Source: a virus
Lineage: Duplodnaviria > Heunggongvirae > Uroviricota > Caudoviricetes
Virus record (IMG/VR): IMGVR_UViG_2713896896_000013
Length of the DNA: 6,069 nucleotides
Strand: one strand, 5' to 3'
In this document: piece by piece, positions 1 to 6,069 of the stretch
Layout of the letters: each line of letters starts with the position of its first letter
Numbering within the stretch: position 1 is the stretch's first letter
Translations under genes and position numbers: made by a program
The notes under the pieces: generated by a model
The model's database searches: none
The model's input: only the letters and a program-made list of their open reading frames with translations
What the model was told of the DNA's origin: nothing

Positions 1-1428
1 GTGAAATTATTCAGATTCTCTAAAGTAAAAATTGCAGAGCTGCCAACGCCGGAGCATGGACAGGCCGAATATGGTGATACGGAGGTTAACGGGCTGCGTG
101 TCCGTGTGGGTTCGTCTGGTGTGAAAAGTTTCTGCATTTCCCGTAAGCGTAACGGAAAATTTATTCGTGCAACGCTGGGGCGTTTTCCTGATCTGAGCGT
201 GGATAATGCCAGGGCGAAAGCAATGGAACTTCTCGGAGAAGTCGCCACAACGGGGATAAATCCGAACATAGCGAAGCGCACGAACAACAAGGCCATGATA
301 ACGCTGAATGAGGCACTTGAAGCCTACATAAAAAATCGTGGCCACCGCCTGAAACCCGCCACAGAAAAACAGTACCGCAGCATATTACAGAATTATTCCG
401 GTGACTGGATGGTGCATACCCTCGCCAGTATTACCCGCGAACGTGTGGAACAGCGGCATAAGGCCGTTACCGACGGGGCTGTATGGTTCGGTGCTGATAA
501 AACCACGTTACGGGCTGGGGTTGGTACAGGAAGCAAGGCACAGGCCGATTTATGGGCGCGTGCGCTGCGTGCTGTGTGTCGGTTTGCGCATGATCATTAC
601 CGTGATGATGCGGGTAATACTCTTTTACCGGATCCGCCGACGCTTGTACTGAGCACAAAACGGCAGTGGCACGGAACGGTAAGAAAAACGGAACGTATCC
701 GCCTGCATGATTTTCCCCGCTGGTTTGCTGCTGTAGCTGCTGTACGCGACCAGGGCGAACAGGAAAGGGATGATATAGCGGTGACGGTATGTGATGCCGT
801 GGAAATGGCGCTTTTTACCGGACTGAGGAAATCAGAAATTTTTGGCCTTACGTGGGATCGCGTGAATATGGGCGGTCGTTTTTTCTGGATAGACACCACG
901 AAAAACGGGGATCCGCTCGAATTACCGATTACTGATACGTTGCGGGAAATGTTCCACCGTCGACTGAAAATAAAAAACGCTGATGATGTTCTGGTGTTTC
1001 CTGGTGTGAAGGGCGTTATCCAGGAGACACGGCACATCATAGACCGGATAAGCGCGGCTACTGTTCCTGAGTCGAACGATGAAATGCTCTCCCCTGTACC
1101 ATTCAAATGGCACGATGCGCGCCGGACGTTCGGGACGGTTGCCGAACTGGTGGGCGTGGGTAATTACATCCTCAAGCGCCTGATGAATCACCGTACTATG
1201 CGAAGTGCCGACGTAACGCAGGGATATTTACATTTTGGTGCTGATGAACTGCTGGAGCCAGCGTCACGGATAGAACGGGCAATTCTGGAACATGCCGGGC
1301 TGGTGGAGAGTAAAAAATCTATCGATGCGCAATTGCTTTCCGCACTGGAGAGTATGAGTGACAGTGAGAAACGCGCATTACTATTTAGTATCGTTAATTC
1401 AAATGGTGGTTTGAATGTCAGAAAATAA
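1..1428 (+). CDS. int: Tyrosine-type site-specific integrase (phage integrase family, P4-like)
   Basis: 475-aa ORF starting at GTG at window position 1, so the upstream RBS is not visible and the N-terminus may be slightly incomplete. The N-terminal region resembles an integrase arm-binding domain (GLRVRVGSSGVKSFCISRKRNGKF...). The C-terminal half carries the tyrosine recombinase catalytic signature in order: R in LFTGLRKSE, H-x-x-R in WHDARRTFGT, catalytic Y in VTQGYLHF. Stop TAA at 1426-1428. A hand count of one stretch (61-120) gives 35/60 G+C. Confidence 0.9.
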   Translation: MKLFRFSKVKIAELPTPEHGQAEYGDTEVNGLRVRVGSSGVKSFCISRKRNGKFIRATLGRFPDLSVDNARAKAMELLGEVATTGINPNIAKRTNNKAMITLNEALEAYIKNRGHRLKPATEKQYRSILQNYSGDWMVHTLASITRERVEQRHKAVTDGAVWFGADKTTLRAGVGTGSKAQADLWARALRAVCRFAHDHYRDDAGNTLLPDPPTLVLSTKRQWHGTVRKTERIRLHDFPRWFAAVAAVRDQGEQERDDIAVTVCDAVEMALFTGLRKSEIFGLTWDRVNMGGRFFWIDTTKNGDPLELPITDTLREMFHRRLKIKNADDVLVFPGVKGVIQETRHIIDRISAATVPESNDEMLSPVPFKWHDARRTFGTVAELVGVGNYILKRLMNHRTMRSADVTQGYLHFGADELLEPASRIERAILEHAGLVESKKSIDAQLLSALESMSDSEKRALLFSIVNSNGGLNVRK

Positions 1429-2101
1429 AATCATTGCTGCAATAGAATTTGACCATAATGATGCGAAGGATATGAATACTATTGCAGATTATATTAGAGA
1501 TGAACTGGCGTCTTCTTTTGTAAAAAAAACGATATGCGATATGGCAAATATCACACCATCTAAAATGTCTCTGGAGGAGAGATTATCATTATCGTCAGAG
1601 ATAGAAAATAAGGATTTAAAAGTTAATATTTCTGTATGTGCCGGGTATGAAGATGATTTTGATAAAAAATTTAATAGTGCATATTCAGAATTCAATGATA
1701 TTTTGAAAGCTGCCATTATATTTGAAGTTCTTGGTTTCAACAGACTTGCAGATCAGTTACGTGAAAGATATGCGATTTTAGTGTCGGAGAATTTATTAAA
1801 ATCAGTACGTGATATAGCTAATGTAAAGAAAATTATCAGTGAAGACCGTAGTAAAGCAAAGAAAGGAAAAACAAACAGGCATAAATCAACAGCGTTATCT
1901 ATAGCTTGTAACACTTGGAAAAAATACCCTAATGCCAGTTTACCCGGGCTATCCGCAGAGATATACGCGCACTTACGCAATAAATGGAATGATGTCCCTG
2001 TAGTTGGGACTATAGAGAGATGGCTTAAGGAGTCGGGGATGAATCCAAAATTCCCGCAAAAAAACAGGGATTTTAAGTTAGTTACTGGAGACAAAGAATA
2101 A
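1415..2101 (+). CDS. Hypothetical protein, 228 aa, AT-rich accessory gene of unknown function
   Basis: Uninterrupted ORF with ATG at 1415 that overlaps the integrase stop by 14 nt, with a weak GGTGG Shine-Dalgarno at 1405-1409. A hand count of 1441-1500 gives 17/60 G+C, well below the flanking genes. The protein is rich in K/E/D/N/I and I recognise no catalytic motif, transmembrane segment or signal peptide. Confidence 0.6.
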   Translation: MSENKIIAAIEFDHNDAKDMNTIADYIRDELASSFVKKTICDMANITPSKMSLEERLSLSSEIENKDLKVNISVCAGYEDDFDKKFNSAYSEFNDILKAAIIFEVLGFNRLADQLRERYAILVSENLLKSVRDIANVKKIISEDRSKAKKGKTNRHKSTALSIACNTWKKYPNASLPGLSAEIYAHLRNKWNDVPVVGTIERWLKESGMNPKFPQKNRDFKLVTGDKE

Positions 2102-2170
2102 ATCCAGTTTTATCCTCTGTAATCCAGATTTCAGCCATGTAAACCAGATATGCGATTTTGTATCTGGTTT
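2101..2170. promoter_or_regulatory. Phased CCAG(AT) repeat array ending in a perfect 10-bp inverted repeat; candidate protein-binding region or weak terminator
   Basis: CCAG occurs at 2104, 2124 and 2144, exactly 20 bp apart, in the contexts aatccag, aatccagat and aaaccagata. A fourth copy is inverted at 2161-2170 (tatctggttt), giving a perfect 10-bp inverted repeat AAACCAGATA (2141-2150) / TATCTGGTTT (2161-2170) with a 10-bp spacer. It sits between the AT-rich gene stop (2101) and the alpA-like start. Confidence 0.35.
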
Positions 2171-2242
2171 TCCTGTCTTCAAGACTTCCCCATCGCTAAA
2201 TAACGTATACCTGTTCTTAATCAGAAGTATACGGTGATACTC

Positions 2243-2431
2243 ATGCATTTAGAAAAAATGACCCGCAAAGAAGCCGCCGAGCATTTGGGGGTAAGTGTCC
2301 AGACTCTTGCTAACTGGGCGTGTACTGGCAAAGTAAAAATCCCTTTTCATAAGCTGGGGCGCAAAGTGCTGTATATGCGCACTGATCTCGATGCTTATAT
2401 TGCATCCACTCGCAGAACGCAGACGGTGTAA
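2243..2431 (+). CDS. alpA: AlpA/excisionase-family helix-turn-helix DNA-binding protein (putative excision or transcriptional regulator)
   Basis: Small ORF with stop TAA at 2429-2431. The translation MTRKEAAEHLGVSVQTLANWACTGKVKIPFHKLGRKVLYMRTDLDAYIAS matches the excisionase/AlpA-type HTH pattern (KEAAE-LGVS...T-..W......P..K-G.). The start is uncertain: in-frame candidates are GTG 2234, ATG 2243 and ATG 2258, none with a strong SD; 2258 gives the most family-typical N-terminus. Confidence 0.75.
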   Translation: MHLEKMTRKEAAEHLGVSVQTLANWACTGKVKIPFHKLGRKVLYMRTDLDAYIASTRRTQTV

Positions 2432-2448
2432 GGGGGGGAGTGATGGCA

Positions 2449-2482
2449 CATAAAACAAAGGCGACCCGGATCAGAGGTCGCC
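2449..2482 (-). terminator. Rho-independent terminator-like hairpin, functional on the minus strand
   Basis: Perfect 7-bp GC-rich stem GGCGACC (2460-2466) / GGTCGCC (2476-2482) with a 9-nt loop. Read on the minus strand it is followed by UUUGUUUUAU (complement of 2449-2459). On the + strand the hairpin is followed by agtggg, which is not U-rich. It lies about 90 nt downstream of the minus-strand gene at 2571-2750. Confidence 0.4.
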
Positions 2483-2570
2483 AGTGGGAATACACTAAAC
2501 ATAAGCCCGGCCATCATAGCGTTTTGCTGGCTGGTGGGCAATGTGATCAGTGTGGTGGCTTGCTGGTGGG

Positions 2571-2750
2571 CTATTCCTGTTCTTTGGCCTTGCGGCGCTG
2601 GCGGCGTTTGATCTCGCCTTTTGCGGCAGTAACTAAAAAACCGGCTGTACTTTCGCCAGGTTCTTTAAGTTGCTCAATATCATCCATTACTTCATGTGGG
2701 ATTCTGACAGTTGTCATTTGTGATTTTGCGTTCTTTGCACCAGTTGCCAT
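2571..2750 (-). CDS. Small ribbon-helix-helix-like DNA-binding protein (59 aa), putative transcriptional regulator
   Basis: Minus-strand ATG at 2748-2750 preceded by a strong SD AGGAGA (complement of 2758-2763) with a 7-nt spacer; stop TAG (complement of 2571-2573). Product: MATGAKNAKSQMTTVRIPHEVMDDIEQLKEPGESTAGFLVTAAKGEIKRRQRRKAKEQE. The pattern is a short beta-strand (TVRIP), helix, loop, helix and a basic tail, as in CopG/Arc-type RHH proteins. The 114-aa version in the ORF track adds a non-protein-like N-terminus with no RBS. Confidence 0.5.
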   Translation of the reverse strand: MATGAKNAKSQMTTVRIPHEVMDDIEQLKEPGESTAGFLVTAAKGEIKRRQRRKAKEQE

Positions 2751-2939
2751 TTCTGGATCTCCTAAAAATTGGTGTATGTCAGTATACGCAAAAAAAATGA
2801 TAAAAAAAGGCTTGAAGTGTATTTCACCAGTGAGTAAATTAAAAAGCAAAGGTGAAATACACCTGAAAGAGCAACGCCCCGCAGTGCTCGCAACACATGC
2901 AGGGCGTCTAACCACAAACCGTTAACAGGAGTAACGATT
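2751..2939. promoter_or_regulatory. Divergent promoter/operator region between the RHH-like gene (minus) and the icd-like operon (plus)
   Basis: Candidate + strand sigma70 promoter: -35 TTGAAG (2812-2817), 17-bp spacer, -10 TAAATT (2835-2840). Perfect 12-bp inverted repeat GTGTATTTCACC (2817-2828) / GGTGAAATACAC (2851-2862) with a 22-bp spacer, overlapping the -35/spacer and the predicted start region. Candidate minus-strand -10 TATACT (complement of 2781-2786). The promoter hexamers are weak-to-moderate matches only. Confidence 0.35.
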
Positions 2940-3137
2940 ATGGCTGTAAAACAGCATACCCCACGCCTAGCGCACACACAAACCGCCTTTGTATGGCGTT
3001 TTCTGGCACTGAGTGCCGGAGAATCCCAGATCATCCACGTCACCGCATGGACGGAACGCGAAGCGCGTAACCGTTGCCCGTCCGGCTGTATTGCCGTATT
3101 CGCTGCCCGTATCCGTCAGGGGGTGTGCCATGCCTGA
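2940..3137 (+). CDS. Small protein (65 aa), tentatively Icd-like (host cell division inhibitor Icd family)
   Basis: ATG at 2940 with SD AGGAG (2927-2931) and an 8-nt spacer; stop TGA at 3135-3137. The translation MAVKQHTPRLAHTQTAFVWRFLALSAGESQIIHVTAWTEREARNRCPSGCIAVFAARIRQGVCHA recalls the signature I remember for Icd-like small proteins of P4-like islands (F-W-R-F-x-A ... E-x-E-A-R ... F-A-A-R). The family assignment is from memory, not a search. Confidence 0.55.
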   Translation: MAVKQHTPRLAHTQTAFVWRFLALSAGESQIIHVTAWTEREARNRCPSGCIAVFAARIRQGVCHA

Positions 3138-3450
3138 TATATCAAAATACCAGTACCTGATTAATCCGCATTTTAACTGTGAGCATGATATTGCTAAAAA
3201 GGTTTATTCCGCTGCGGATATGGCTACTGACAATATATCAATGGGTATTGCATCAATTGGTAACCTGATGTGGCATGCGGCAGAAAATGAGGACTATGAC
3301 GAACAGACCATGCGCATTGACATGGGGAATATTGGCTTGTTACTGGCAATGCTTGGGCAGTTTGATATTTCGTTACGGTGCACCATTGAAAATGCCACAG
3401 ATGCATTAAATGCCATAAAGAAAGCGAATACTGATTCAAATCGGGGATAA
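3130..3450 (+). CDS. Hypothetical protein (106 aa)
   Basis: ATG at 3130 overlaps the upstream stop by 8 nt (ATGCCTGA), implying translational coupling; stop TAA at 3448-3450. Product MPDISKYQYLINPHFNCEHDIAKKVYSAADMATDNISMGIASIGNLMWHAAENEDYDEQTMRIDMGNIGLLLAMLGQFDISLRCTIENATDALNAIKKANTDSNRG is acidic with no motif I recognise. The longer track ORF from 3013 would overlap the icd-like gene out of frame and is not favoured. Confidence 0.6.
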   Translation: MPDISKYQYLINPHFNCEHDIAKKVYSAADMATDNISMGIASIGNLMWHAAENEDYDEQTMRIDMGNIGLLLAMLGQFDISLRCTIENATDALNAIKKANTDSNRG

Positions 3451-3456
3451 ATAATC

Positions 3457-3756
3457 ATGAGAACATATTTATCTGGCTTGACTGCCAGCGGTTATGCACA
3501 CCCCAAAATTATCCCCGGCGCTATTTATCTGGATAAGAACGGTAACAGAGTAACGGTAAAAGAACTGATGTTTGATCGTGTTTATTTTATCCGTGATGGA
3601 TATTCATTTCTTAGTTCGCTGAACGTGGAGATCTTTATTTGCAGATTCCGGCGGGAAATCCCGACTTCCAGAAATAACCATGTGTCACGTGTGGATGTGG
3701 ATAAAAAACTACAGGAACTGAAAAACATGATTGCCGCGTGGAGAGAGCAGAAATGA
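3457..3756 (+). CDS. Hypothetical protein (99 aa)
   Basis: ATG at 3457 with an SD-like GGGGA about 10 nt upstream. Its stop TGA (3754-3756) overlaps the ATG of the replication gene (3753-3755) in an ATGA arrangement. No recognisable motif. Confidence 0.6.
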   Translation: MRTYLSGLTASGYAHPKIIPGAIYLDKNGNRVTVKELMFDRVYFIRDGYSFLSSLNVEIFICRFRREIPTSRNNHVSRVDVDKKLQELKNMIAAWREQK

Positions 3757-5570
3757 AAAAAGCGCCAAATTTAAAACACCAGCCGCGTGACAAAATGACG
3801 GAAGTCATCATTTTTGCGGGTAGTGATGCGTGGGCACATGCGAAACAGTGGCAGGAACAGGACGGGCGACTGGCTGGCGATAACGTCCCTCCTGTCTGGC
3901 TTGGAGAGCAACAACTTGCCGAACTGGACAACCTGCAAATCGTACCGGACGGACGCTATCGCGTGCGTCTCTATCAGGCGGGGTTATTGCGTCCGGGGCT
4001 TGTTAATACCATCGGGCAGAAACTGGCAGCGGCAGGTGTCAGGGATGCTGATTATTATCCTGAAGGAATGCACAGCCAGAAACGGGAGAACTGGCGCGAA
4101 TATCTGGAACGTGAGCGGGGAGAGCTGGCGGAAAAGAAAAAGGTAGTTGAACTGCCTGTAAAGAAAAAAGAGCGGGTAAAAGACGATAACGCTTCATCAC
4201 TGGCACTTAACCAGATGGGAGCAAGTCAACGCGGCGAAGTTCTCCTGGCACATTATGGCGGTGAACTGGCGATTCATGCTGACTCTGACACTGTTCACCA
4301 TTACAACGGCGTTGTATGGGAGCCAGTACAGGATAAAGAATTACAGCGAGCTATGGCACAGATTTTCATTGATGCGGAGATCAGCTATTCGCAGAACGCC
4401 ATTAAATCGGCGGTCGATACCATGAAGTTAAGTTTGCCTGTTATGGGGAATACAGCCCGTAACCTGATTGGATTCAGTAACGGGGTATTTGATACCAGAA
4501 CAGGTAATTTTCGGGAGCATAACAAAAACGACTGGTTGTTAATTGCCAGTGAATTACCTTTCAGCCCACCAGCAGAGGGGGAAACGCTGGCAACACATGC
4601 GCCGAATTTCTGGAAGTGGTTACGCCGTTCGGTGGCTGAGAATGACCGCAAGGCGGATCGCGTACTGGCTGCATTATTCATGGTGCTGGCGAACCGGTAC
4701 GACTGGCAGTTATTCATTGAGGTAACAGGTCCAGGGGGAAGTGGTAAAAGCGTGATGGCGGAGATTTGCACCATGCTGGCGGGTAAGGCCAACACAGTAT
4801 CGGCAAGCATGAAGGCGCTGGAAGATGCAAGGGAACGCGCGTTAGTGGTTGGCTTTTCGCTGATTATCATGCCGGATATGACCCGCTACGCTGGTGATGG
4901 GGCAGGAATTAAGGCCATTACAGGCGGTGACAAGGTGGCAATTGACCCAAAACACAAAGCCCCCTACTCAACGCGTATTCCGGCAGTAGTGCTGGCGGTT
5001 AACAATAACGCCATGTCATTCAGTGACCGCAGCGGGGGGATCTCACGTCGTCGGGTGATATTCAATTTTTCGGAAGTTGTACCGGAGAACGAACGCGATC
5101 CAATGCTGGCGGAAAAAATAGAAGGTGAGCTGGCGGTAGTGATTCGCCATCTGCTTACACGGTTTGCTGACCAGGACGAAGCCAGACGCCTGTTATATGA
5201 GCAGCAGAAATCTGAAGAAGCACTGGCGATAAAGCGAGAGGGGGATTCGCTGGTGGACTTCTGCGGCTATCTCATGGCGTCGGTAATGTGTGATGGCCTG
5301 TTAGTGGGTAATGCTGAAATTGTGCCATTCAGCCCACGCAGGTATCTCTATCATGCCTATCTGGCTTATATGAGGGCACATGGGTTTGGTAAACCTGTAA
5401 CACTGACGCGCTTCGGTAAAGATATGCCGGGGGCAATGGCGGAATATGGCAGGGAGTATATGAAACGGAAAACGAAGCACGGTTTGCGTTCAAACGTGAC
5501 ACTGACGGAGGAATCAGAAGACTGGATGCCATCATGTGTATCGGTCACTAATGACGATAGCAAAAATTAA
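3753..5570 (+). CDS. Replication initiator with D5_N-like region and SF3-type P-loop helicase domain (P4 alpha-like / PICI Pri-Rep-like primase-helicase family)
   Basis: 605-aa ORF from ATG 3753 (the track gives a GTG 5 codons upstream at 3738). Walker A motif GPGGSGKS in FIEVTGPGGSGKSVM; candidate Walker B hydrophobic run plus Asp in LVVGFSLIIMPDM. The segment IGFSNGVFDTRTGNFREHNKNDW resembles the D5_N motif that precedes SF3 helicase domains in P4-family primase C-terminal-domain proteins. It is immediately followed by an iteron array. Stop TAA at 5568-5570. Confidence 0.88.
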   Translation: MKKAPNLKHQPRDKMTEVIIFAGSDAWAHAKQWQEQDGRLAGDNVPPVWLGEQQLAELDNLQIVPDGRYRVRLYQAGLLRPGLVNTIGQKLAAAGVRDADYYPEGMHSQKRENWREYLERERGELAEKKKVVELPVKKKERVKDDNASSLALNQMGASQRGEVLLAHYGGELAIHADSDTVHHYNGVVWEPVQDKELQRAMAQIFIDAEISYSQNAIKSAVDTMKLSLPVMGNTARNLIGFSNGVFDTRTGNFREHNKNDWLLIASELPFSPPAEGETLATHAPNFWKWLRRSVAENDRKADRVLAALFMVLANRYDWQLFIEVTGPGGSGKSVMAEICTMLAGKANTVSASMKALEDARERALVVGFSLIIMPDMTRYAGDGAGIKAITGGDKVAIDPKHKAPYSTRIPAVVLAVNNNAMSFSDRSGGISRRRVIFNFSEVVPENERDPMLAEKIEGELAVVIRHLLTRFADQDEARRLLYEQQKSEEALAIKREGDSLVDFCGYLMASVMCDGLLVGNAEIVPFSPRRYLYHAYLAYMRAHGFGKPVTLTRFGKDMPGAMAEYGREYMKRKTKHGLRSNVTLTEESEDWMPSCVSVTNDDSKN

Positions 5571-5581
5571 ACTTATGGAAT

Positions 5582-5815
5582 AACTGTTCACCACTGTTCA
5601 CCCTGTCATAAATATCTTTTATATCAGTATATTATAGGGTGAACAGTTGTTTATGAACTGTTCACCAAACTATTCACTGTTCACCTTTTTGATTGTTTAT
5701 TGAGCTTCAAGGGTGAACAGTGGTGAACAGTTGGTGAATAGTTTTTGTGAAACTGTTCACCCCTTAACATTATGAATTAAAAGAGAAAATATCAAAAGGT
5801 GAACAGGTGAAGGGT
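5582..5815. repeat. Iteron array, candidate replication origin (9-mer GGTGAACAG / CTGTTCACC, both orientations)
   Basis: CTGTTCACC at 5584-5592, 5594-5602, 5658-5666, 5677-5685 and 5753-5761. GGTGAACAG at 5638-5646, 5712-5720, 5722-5730 and 5798-5806, plus a degenerate GGTGAATAG at 5733-5741 and partial copies (ctgtca 5603-5608, ctattcac 5670-5677, ggtgaaggg 5806-5814). Tandem copies are phased at 10-11 bp. AT-rich stretches at 5606-5637 and 5762-5797 could act as unwinding elements. The core octamer TGTTCACC is, as I recall, the alpha-protein binding iteron of the P4 ori and crr. Confidence 0.75.
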
Positions 5816-5892
5816 TAAAACGCAAAAATTTTAATTTACTGCTGTGAGATAAAGCCTATGACAGCGAAGCACACCAAAACAACAGGAGGGGA

Positions 5893-6069
5893 ATGATGAT
5901 CCGTACGGGGATAACATACCGTTTTAAGCAACGAGTGACAGAAGCCGGAGCAATCCGGCTTTTTATGGGTCCTCCCGGTGTAGTGACCTGCCACGGGGCG
6001 GGAGCGGCGCGGAAAAAGGCTGGTTTTTGCATTTTCATGGCGGCGGCAGCATGTGTGATAATTTATTGA
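5893..6069 (+). CDS. Small hypothetical protein (58 aa), tentative
   Basis: Strong SD AGGAGG (5884-5889) followed by tandem ATGs at 5893 and 5896; in-frame stop TGA at 6067-6069, exactly the last three bases of the window. Product MMIRTGITYRFKQRVTEAGAIRLFMGPPGVVTCHGAGAARKKAGFCIFMAAAACVIIY. It is below the 60-aa cutoff of the ORF track. A terminator-like hairpin lies inside it, which lowers confidence. Confidence 0.35.
   Translation: MMIRTGITYRFKQRVTEAGAIRLFMGPPGVVTCHGAGAARKKAGFCIFMAAAACVIIY
5941..5966 (+). terminator. Terminator-like hairpin with GNRA loop and U-tract on the + strand
   Basis: Stem AGCCGGA (5943-5949) / TCCGGCT (5954-5960), extendable by an A-T pair (5942/5961), with loop GCAA, followed by TTTTAT (5961-5966). 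It lies inside the tentative small ORF, so it may be an attenuator, the 3' end of a short transcript, or coincidental. Confidence 0.3.

Follow-up and report, generated by a model that had tools for sequence, protein, structure and literature searches.

A polymorphic gene and phased box repeats between the integrase and alpA-like genes of a putative Gram-negative phage satellite

The DNA studied here is a stretch of 6,069 nt (the window) from the Caudoviricetes virus record IMGVR_UViG_2713896896_000013. Its sequence indicates, with high probability, that it is the arm of a Gram-negative phage-inducible chromosomal island (PICI) which serves integration, regulation and replication, the island being located at the 3' end of tRNA-Ile2 (ileX). 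Between the integrase gene (int) and an alpA-like gene of the excisionase family lies a gene without family match, here called X, which is followed by an array of short phased boxes. We lean slightly towards a composite model in which X is the box-binding, phage-sensing gatekeeper of the alpA-like gene in this PICI arm. When the parts of the model are taken one by one, X as a putative regulator binding the boxes comes a little short of an even bet, and the putative sensing of phage by X is possible but rather doubtful. As far as searches show, X together with its boxes is an unreported feature. The gene map (Table 1) is based on a six-frame listing of open reading frames (ORFs) and on family searches in Pfam, PHROGs and NCBIfam.

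The boxes after gene X

The boxes of the window are AATCCAGTT at 2101, AATCCAGAT at 2121 and AAACCAGAT at 2141 on the plus strand, and an inverted AAACCAGAT at 2162-2170 on the minus strand, which gives a spacing of 20/20/21 bp. The first box begins within the stop codon of X (2099-2101). The pattern AAWCCAGWT has four matches in the window, all in the interval between X and the alpA-like gene, and none of 200 shuffles reached this number. Across loci (numbered L001 and upwards below) three to five phased boxes follow the X stop codon. The same boxes with a 19-21-bp spacing are found in Klebsiella, Salmonella and Pectobacterium loci which have the same C-terminal subtype of X, and there the spacers differ; the boxes of type 1, the type of the window, are kept across five genera, with spacers that diverge. 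Where X has another C-terminal subtype, other boxes stand at the same place and in the same phase, namely TAGCTGGCTA-like boxes, (A/T)ACGCGC(T/G)T, CCCTGG..CAGCT and AAGTACTTAAC. In the three islands checked the arrays were confined to the interval between X and the alpA-like gene, with one stray single match elsewhere in L001.

A comparison of pairs and groups of loci indicates that the boxes track the C-terminal subtype of X and not the AlpA-like protein. Boxes differ between loci where the AlpA-like proteins are 89-98% identical and the C-termini of X only 27-36% (window/L004, L028/L029, L036/L029 and L019/L022), and they are the same where the AlpA-like proteins are 67-75% identical and the C-termini of X 46-69% (window/L007/L013/L010 and L028/L020/L044). 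On the basis of this double dissociation, autoregulatory sites for AlpA were rejected as an explanation of the boxes. The only type-specific protein segments nearby are the C-terminal domain of X and the short C-terminal tail of Int. The repetition of the boxes, their helical phasing and their conservation within a type across genera point to binding sites. It should be noted that boxes 3 and 4 of type 1 make a terminator-like hairpin followed by TTTT. A simple terminator was rejected as a general explanation of the boxes, as it fits type 1 only; types 2-4 are without a hairpin that is followed by a T-run.

Gene X and its protein

The start of X precedes the int stop codon by 14 nt, a GGTGG Shine-Dalgarno sequence is found 6 nt upstream of it, and X is predicted to be translated from the int transcript. 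This is a small family of narrow range: at the 50% identity level it forms 148 clusters in a set of 1.84 billion representatives, and every named member is called hypothetical and comes from Enterobacterales. The 13 invariant columns of the alignment all lie within the last 90 residues, and the N-terminal parts are unalignable between many members. Overall the N-terminal identity between alleles is 17-32%; for E. coli alleles next to integrases of 95-97% identity it is 19-30%.

The C-terminal ~85 aa make up a conserved three-helix, helix-turn-helix (HTH)-like domain preceded by a basic arm, KAKKGKTNRH. The AlphaFold model of X, with a predicted local distance difference test (pLDDT) score of 79, is mainly helical with two short strands, and the C-terminal three-helix unit has a pLDDT of 85-93. 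This domain gives weak winged-helix matches, and the E. coli allele in L004 gives a sub-threshold match to HTH_32. DNA binding by the C-terminal domain is plausible, and the predicted fold taken alone weakly supports it. A sequence-profile search for solved-structure relatives of X gave a best E of 0.1 or worse, and Foldseek against PDB and BFVD gave nothing with E < 0.4; a profile search with the C-terminal domain in a word-indexed protein database returned only five fragments.

The slot between int and the alpA-like gene

The integrase of the window is present in 87 of 5,426 complete E. coli genomes. Its identity is 95-97% among the ileX islands of E. coli, and in a set of 32 species it is 53-79%. 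The X allele of the window is found over at least 80% of its length in 54 E. coli genomes, another four share only the 3' 40%, and the remaining E. coli genomes with this integrase have other sequences of similar length in the slot; at least five alleles occur in this species. In each of the E. coli loci L003-L006 one gene, coding for 206-266 aa, overlaps the int stop codon and is followed by the HTH gene. The DNA similarity to the window ends within the C-terminal tail of int, at 1335-1403, and resumes at 1829 (L003) or at 2251-2300 (L004-L006). From these breakpoints it follows that the slot varies by replacement of a cassette which begins in the int tail, includes the last ~10-45 codons of int and ends within the first codons of the alpA-like gene.

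A survey across species, using one genome per species and requiring an integrase alignment, gave 32 loci, of which 30 were informative and two were truncated contigs. An X-family ORF directly after int was found in 24 loci, a DUF6387 protein in two (Oceanisphaera), an unrelated protein of 233-235 aa in two (Xenorhabdus) and nothing in two. The original prediction, which had called for this tabulation, regarded X as the only clearly foreign insert in the backbone and as the mark of a variable slot for cargo. The junction between int and the alpA-like gene does differ among homologous islands, and in that sense the slot is variable; it is mostly filled by one family, found at the same position in 24 of 30 loci and AT-rich everywhere, and this does not support the reading, as stated, of a foreign insert in an open cargo slot. 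X is the lowest-GC coding stretch of the window (25-36% GC in the 5' two thirds versus 49-56% in int), and the GC content of all X alleles is 5-18 points under that of their own integrase whatever the host. The AT-richness is therefore a trait of the family and not evidence of recent insertion. On these sequence data X appears to be a resident polymorphic partner of this integrase clade and not foreign cargo.

A protein search found relatives of X on three backbones: a Salmonella PICI with an AAA_25 replicase, PICIs with a primase, and a Klebsiella capsid-forming PICI (cfPICI). They are always located between an integrase of 474-487 aa and an HTH_17 gene and overlap the int stop codon; the alpA-like HTH gene follows X in all loci. 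X is absent from E. coli PICIs with a primase which is 88-99.7% identical but with a different integrase. In these PICIs, at cspD/clpS, tRNA-Pro and tRNA-Arg, int and the regulator gene are separated by a 61-aa ORF or have no gene between them. A primase at least 95% identical to that of the window is present in 513 E. coli genomes, the majority of which have other integrases; this integrase is found in 87.

The presence of accessory genes between int and the regulator gene of PICIs is already in the literature (PMC10085698; PMC11364771). Slot occupants other than X were located at L035 11427-12275, L043 5187-6092 and L021 11441-12142 (DUF6387 and the 233-aa Xenorhabdus protein). The Xenorhabdus protein has a weak PADLOC match to PDC-S31, and repeated AATGGTT motifs follow the stop codon of its gene. 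PADLOC and family searches of the occupants found no recognised defence system in the slot. The replication modules behind int-X-HTH_17 are also swapped, between a D5-type primase, a DUF927 protein and an AAA_25 helicase (L003 14099-16222; AAA_25 in L007-L012). A second variable position is found just 3' of the alpA-like gene, where an AntA/AntB antirepressor, an HNH/AP2 protein, a Phage_ASH protein or nothing is encoded (L004 12432-13280, L009 11196-12348 and L010 11724-12602); this position is the "Bro/dynamic zone" of published PICI maps.

The island at tRNA-Ile2

The window is 97-98% identical to sequences in E. coli chromosomes, where it is the left arm of an island of ~11 kb. Size and gene content were judged on these closest genomes and not on the window itself. 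The L001 island is 11,045 bp and lies between nfeF and mug; among the E. coli relatives L001-L006 the size ranges from 10.8 to 11.9 kb. The att sites are outside the window, upstream of position 1, and no tRNA is found within its 6,069 nt. The direct repeats and the tRNA which the original prediction suggested looking for are found in the closest genomes: a repeat of 46-49 nt, the 3' half of tRNA-Ile(CAU), lies 180-226 bp upstream of int in L001-L006, and the other end of the island, 10.8-11.9 kb downstream, has an intact tRNA-Ile(CAU). Because of the CAU anticodon and the tRNA-Ile annotation this is tRNA-Ile2 (ileX).

The two half-copies of tRNA-Ile2 in L001 (13775-13820 and 24820-24865) have compensatory changes in the T-stem, CTGCTGGACTTGAACCAGC versus CTGTTGGGTTTGAACCAAC, and in L006 the two are identical. 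From the differences it follows that the intact tRNA of some strains has a 3' half derived from the island. The 21-nt sequence ACGGTATCCTATAGGTATCCT is found near both ends of the island in L001, at 13927-13947 (74 bp upstream of int) and at 24752-24772 (68 bp from the 3' end of the tRNA), and the two copies are candidates for arm-type integrase sites flanking the attP core. A second integrase gene located directly after one such island (L014 19694-20603, GCA_031503945.1) suggests tandem or adjacent islands.

A cos site is located directly 3' of the iteron origin. Base 1 of the records of phages Tritos and cdtI aligns to position 5996 of the window, with 93% and 89% identity, respectively. In Tritos the distance from the cos point to terS, the small terminase gene downstream of it, is 196 bp, and in mEp460 the same cos sequence is found between the lysis genes and the end of the record. 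The island has a second cos copy (L001 23283-23355) with a different right-hand (cosB-side) flank, so that of the two copies one has a Tritos-like and the other an mEp460-like flank.

The remainder of the island in L001 codes for a fusion of ClpP protease and major capsid protein, and has a Lambda_tail_I-like gene, a tail-gene fragment, DUF1441 and a small ORF. In other E. coli alleles of the island these are replaced by genes for a major capsid protein and a decoration protein and by terS. One might consider that the region is no PICI but belongs to a conventional or decaying prophage or to a satellite of the P4 type. The prohead protease/major capsid fusion and the tail-gene fragments of the closest islands could be taken that way, and so could the integrase and the primase, which are of a broad P4-like type. 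However, the E. coli islands checked (L001-L006) lack portal, TerL, head-tail connectors and tail or lysis modules, and their small size and gene content speak against a conventional prophage. The genes psu, delta, sid and ash/epsilon were not found in the window by family search and are not annotated in the complete islands L001-L006, which speaks against a P4-like satellite, and the primase scores below the cutoff for the P4 family (TIGR01613; 95 bits versus 108.7). Moreover, the layout fits the four zones of Gram-negative PICIs (PMC10111431) and the origin design of E. coli PICIs (PMC6092414). Taken together, a prophage or P4-type origin is very improbable.

At the sequence level the satellite reading is secure because of the cos site, the att structure, the size and the iteron origin. 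The helper-dependent satellite of the original prediction is supported at this level by an island of ~11 kb between tRNA repeats, with a cos site and without tail or lysis module; what the closest genomes contain is a small island with a few captured head and tail genes and not a complete prophage with its own structural genes. PICIs at tRNA-Ile2 with a CLP_protease gene have already been described; they are said to "lack an alpA gene", and HTH_17 is placed in the integration zone (PMC10111431). In the supplements of PMC6092414 the names ileX, yqjH and mug do not occur.

A model for gene X and its alternatives

The model that we favour, with X as gatekeeper, can be formulated as follows. In the integrated state X would be made together with Int and would occupy the boxes via its C-terminal HTH-like domain. 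X bound to the boxes would gate transcription into, or initiation at, the alpA-like excisionase/activator gene. The hypervariable N-terminal part would give allele-specific recognition of a helper-phage product, and this product would alter the state of X and so commit the island to excision, to replication by Pri-Rep from the iterons, and to packaging by the helper phage through the lambdoid cos site. [quoted passage not shown] DNA binding, the direction of regulation and phage sensing are properties of X that we infer. In its widest form the model postulates that X and the boxes are a cassette-exchangeable "sensor plus operator" module which times the switch-on of the excisionase/activator gene in Enterobacterales PICIs and cfPICIs of the tRNA-Ile2 clade, with N-terminal alleles tuned to different helper proteins, and that this Gram-negative counterpart of Stl might double as phage interference. 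We regard this wide form as conceivable and rather unlikely.

Several points weigh against the gatekeeper model. The neighbours of X co-vary by linkage, so that the case for binding is left to the repetition and phasing of the boxes and to their within-type conservation in different genera. The hairpin of boxes 3 and 4 means that part of the type-1 signal could be the terminator of int-X. PICIs with near-identical regulatory and replication backbones lack X, which therefore is no general master regulator of PICIs, and the separate divergent YlcI/YnfO gene could code for the repressor. The dependence on a helper is deduced from sequence alone. Furthermore, defence genes are found in the int-proximal region of known PICIs (PMC11364771; PMC10085698), which fits a defence role for X equally well.

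Such a role is the main rival. X would be an anti-phage defence or interference payload, a single gene expressed when the island is integrated and with an N-terminal domain recognising phage proteins, and the boxes would be unrelated or serve autoregulation or termination. This is compatible with a regulatory role and both could hold; as the explanation of X we find it unlikely. The slot corresponds to the int-proximal accessory/immune region of the PICIs just cited, X, besides its AT-richness, shows extreme polymorphism at a single att site of one species, and with its predicted co-transcription with int it would be expressed without induction. The weak PDC-S31 match of the Xenorhabdus slot protein points in the same direction, and repressors can double as immunity factors, as is reported for SaPI2 Stl2 (PMC11846896). 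However, PADLOC gave no match for the X of the window or for seven other X alleles, and Pfam, PHROGs and NCBIfam were negative too, so that X was assigned to no known defence family; nor did the family searches find an enzymatic or effector domain in X. The family is tied to one integrase clade and is not spread among defence islands, phages and plasmids (tblastn found X in none of 50,697 phage records), and a defence role leaves the type-specific phased boxes unexplained. It has also been considered that X is an accessory factor of the integration module, either an architectural or directionality factor or a regulator of the excisionase gene only, without phage sensing. The strict linkage and translational coupling to one integrase clade, the absence of X where the integrase differs, the excisionase family of the downstream gene, and the C-terminal tail of int in the same exchanged cassette would all fit. 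Against it, the boxes are ~2.3 kb from the att core and outside attL and attR, two loci of the clade have no slot gene and four have unrelated genes, and the N-terminal hypervariability is hard to explain for a housekeeping recombination factor. We consider an accessory factor of this kind improbable.

Other features of the window

The gene order int, X, alpA-like gene, divergent gene, small coupled genes, primase and iteron origin, on which the original prediction was based, is all present and co-linear (Table 1).

Table 1. Genes and sites in the window
Feature	Position	Strand	Basis
int, tyrosine integrase, 475 aa, tRNA-Ile2-specific clade	1-1428	+	Pfam Arm-DNA-bind_3 and Phage_integrase, E ~1e-13; phrog_1
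Gene X, 228 aa, without family match	1415-2101	+	ORF, coupled to int
Array of four X-type boxes, AAWCCAGWT	2101-2170	boxes 1-3 +, box 4 -	Pattern scan
AlpA-like small HTH protein, excisionase family, 62 aa	2243-2431	+	HTH_17, E 1.5e-12; TIGR01764 "excise" above cutoff; phrog_66 excisionase/regulator
YlcI/YnfO-family small protein, divergent	2571-2750	-	NF041551, E 1e-17; phrog_949
Icd-like gene (host cell division inhibitor-like), opens rightward operon	2940-3137	+	NF033153, E 2e-17
Conserved hypothetical protein, 106 aa	3130-3450	+	phrog_15327, E 3e-66
DUF4222 protein	3457-3756	+	Pfam DUF4222, E 6e-17; phrog_285
Primase-helicase (Pri-Rep)	3753-5570	+	D5_N, DUF5906, Pox_D5; phrog_864, E 2e-192
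Iteron origin, two GGTGAACAG repeat sets around AT-rich core at ~5686-5711	5584-5806	both orientations	Repeat scan
Lambdoid cos site, cosN-like end from 5996 (GGGCGGGAGCGG)	5966-6069	+	Alignment to phage genomes

The 62-aa AlpA-like protein did not reach the threshold of Pfam Phage_AlpA. The Icd-like gene overlaps the phrog_15327 ORF by 8 nt, and the end of the DUF4222 gene overlaps the start of the primase gene by 4 nt. The iteron region has ten exact copies of GGTGAACAG and one copy with one mismatch. With one mismatch allowed the window has 13 matches versus 1.2 expected, a count which was reached in none of 200 shuffles.

A hairpin, CGTATAC..GTATACG, at 2204-2233 adjoins the Shine-Dalgarno sequence of the alpA-like gene. 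The equivalent stem in other genera is TATCACC..GGTGATA, with the Shine-Dalgarno sequence within the 3' arm; the hairpin could serve translational control of the alpA-like regulator or be a conserved protein site. A terminator-like hairpin found in the terminator scan at 2460-2482 on the minus strand is downstream of the YlcI/YnfO gene, the divergent regulator of the original prediction, for which we infer a regulatory role. Just 5' of the start of the Icd-like gene a structured element (2870-2947) is found on both strands. Rfam gave sub-threshold matches only, to symR (29.6 bits, cutoff 61) and to an R1162-like antisense RNA (28.9 bits, cutoff 55). Immunity RNAs of the C4/isrK type have been reported in this zone of some PICIs (PMC10111431), and in Rfam the element matched no such family. 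The YlcI/YnfO gene and the structured element may form a separate switch for the replication operon.

Significance

As a satellite the window is ordinary, since E. coli PICIs, the tRNA-Ile2 subgroup and int-proximal accessory regions have all been published. For at least one integrase clade the X family is a concrete candidate open to testing: in it a conserved domain of putative DNA-binding type is paired with boxes upstream of the excisionase/activator gene, and the hypervariable domain differs between islands with integrases of 95-97% identity. Should X turn out to be a defence protein, it would represent a new single-gene family missed by current predictors.

Comparison with known systems

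The closest known systems are the E. coli PICIs of the EcCICFT073 type (PMC6092414), and in particular the tRNA-Ile2 PICIs with a CLP_protease gene (PMC10111431). They resemble the island in that int occupies the left end, that a small HTH protein is present as putative regulator, and that coupled genes run rightward up to pri-rep, and they have, as in the window, two iteron sets directly 3' of pri-rep (their Figure 2 legend). Further similarities are the two-copy cos-type signal, the size of ~11 kb, the tRNA att site and the captured head genes in the late zone; EcCICFT073 has been reported with two cosN sequences (PMC6092414). The window differs from them in that its putative regulator belongs to the HTH_17/excisionase family with no match to Pfam Phage_AlpA, that its integrase is of a distinctive 475-aa clade, that the extra int-coupled gene X and the putative cognate boxes are located between int and the regulator, and that the leftward YlcI/YnfO gene breaks the "unidirectional" rule.

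P4 shares with the window an Arm-DNA-bind_3 integrase, a Vis/AlpA-like HTH protein, a D5-type primase-helicase, an Icd-like gene and integration at a tRNA. Unlike P4, the island has no sid, psu, delta or epsilon genes, its cos site and captured head genes are lambdoid and not P2-like, and the origin in the window is of the iteron type and located directly after pri-rep. The PICI accessory/immune regions and the P4 defence hotspot (Fillol-Salom 2022 and Rousset 2022, PMC9122126, both as cited in PMC11364771; PMC10085698) are like the slot in being adjacent to int, in varying in content between similar satellites and in having AT-rich uncharacterised genes. The slot, in contrast, holds one gene of essentially one family, which is exchanged as alleles; diverse multi-gene defence systems are not found in it, and its occupants match no known defence family.

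The gene for SaPI Stl (PMC6695447; PMC9638917) lies between int and the switch for excision and replication, and its expression takes place while the island is integrated, as that of X presumably does. Both have a conserved DNA-binding part, putative in the case of X, and a highly divergent part, and in both cases islands that are otherwise alike have different alleles. The two proteins are not related in sequence or fold, the domain order is reversed, with the HTH-like domain of X being C-terminal, and X, unlike Stl, is not divergent but lies downstream of int and co-directional with the genes it would control. The capsid-forming PICIs, finally, have their own capsid as well as portal, connectors and TerL, and the E. 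coli relatives of the window lack the last three; the int-X-HTH_17 module is nevertheless also found on a Klebsiella cfPICI (L007-L009).

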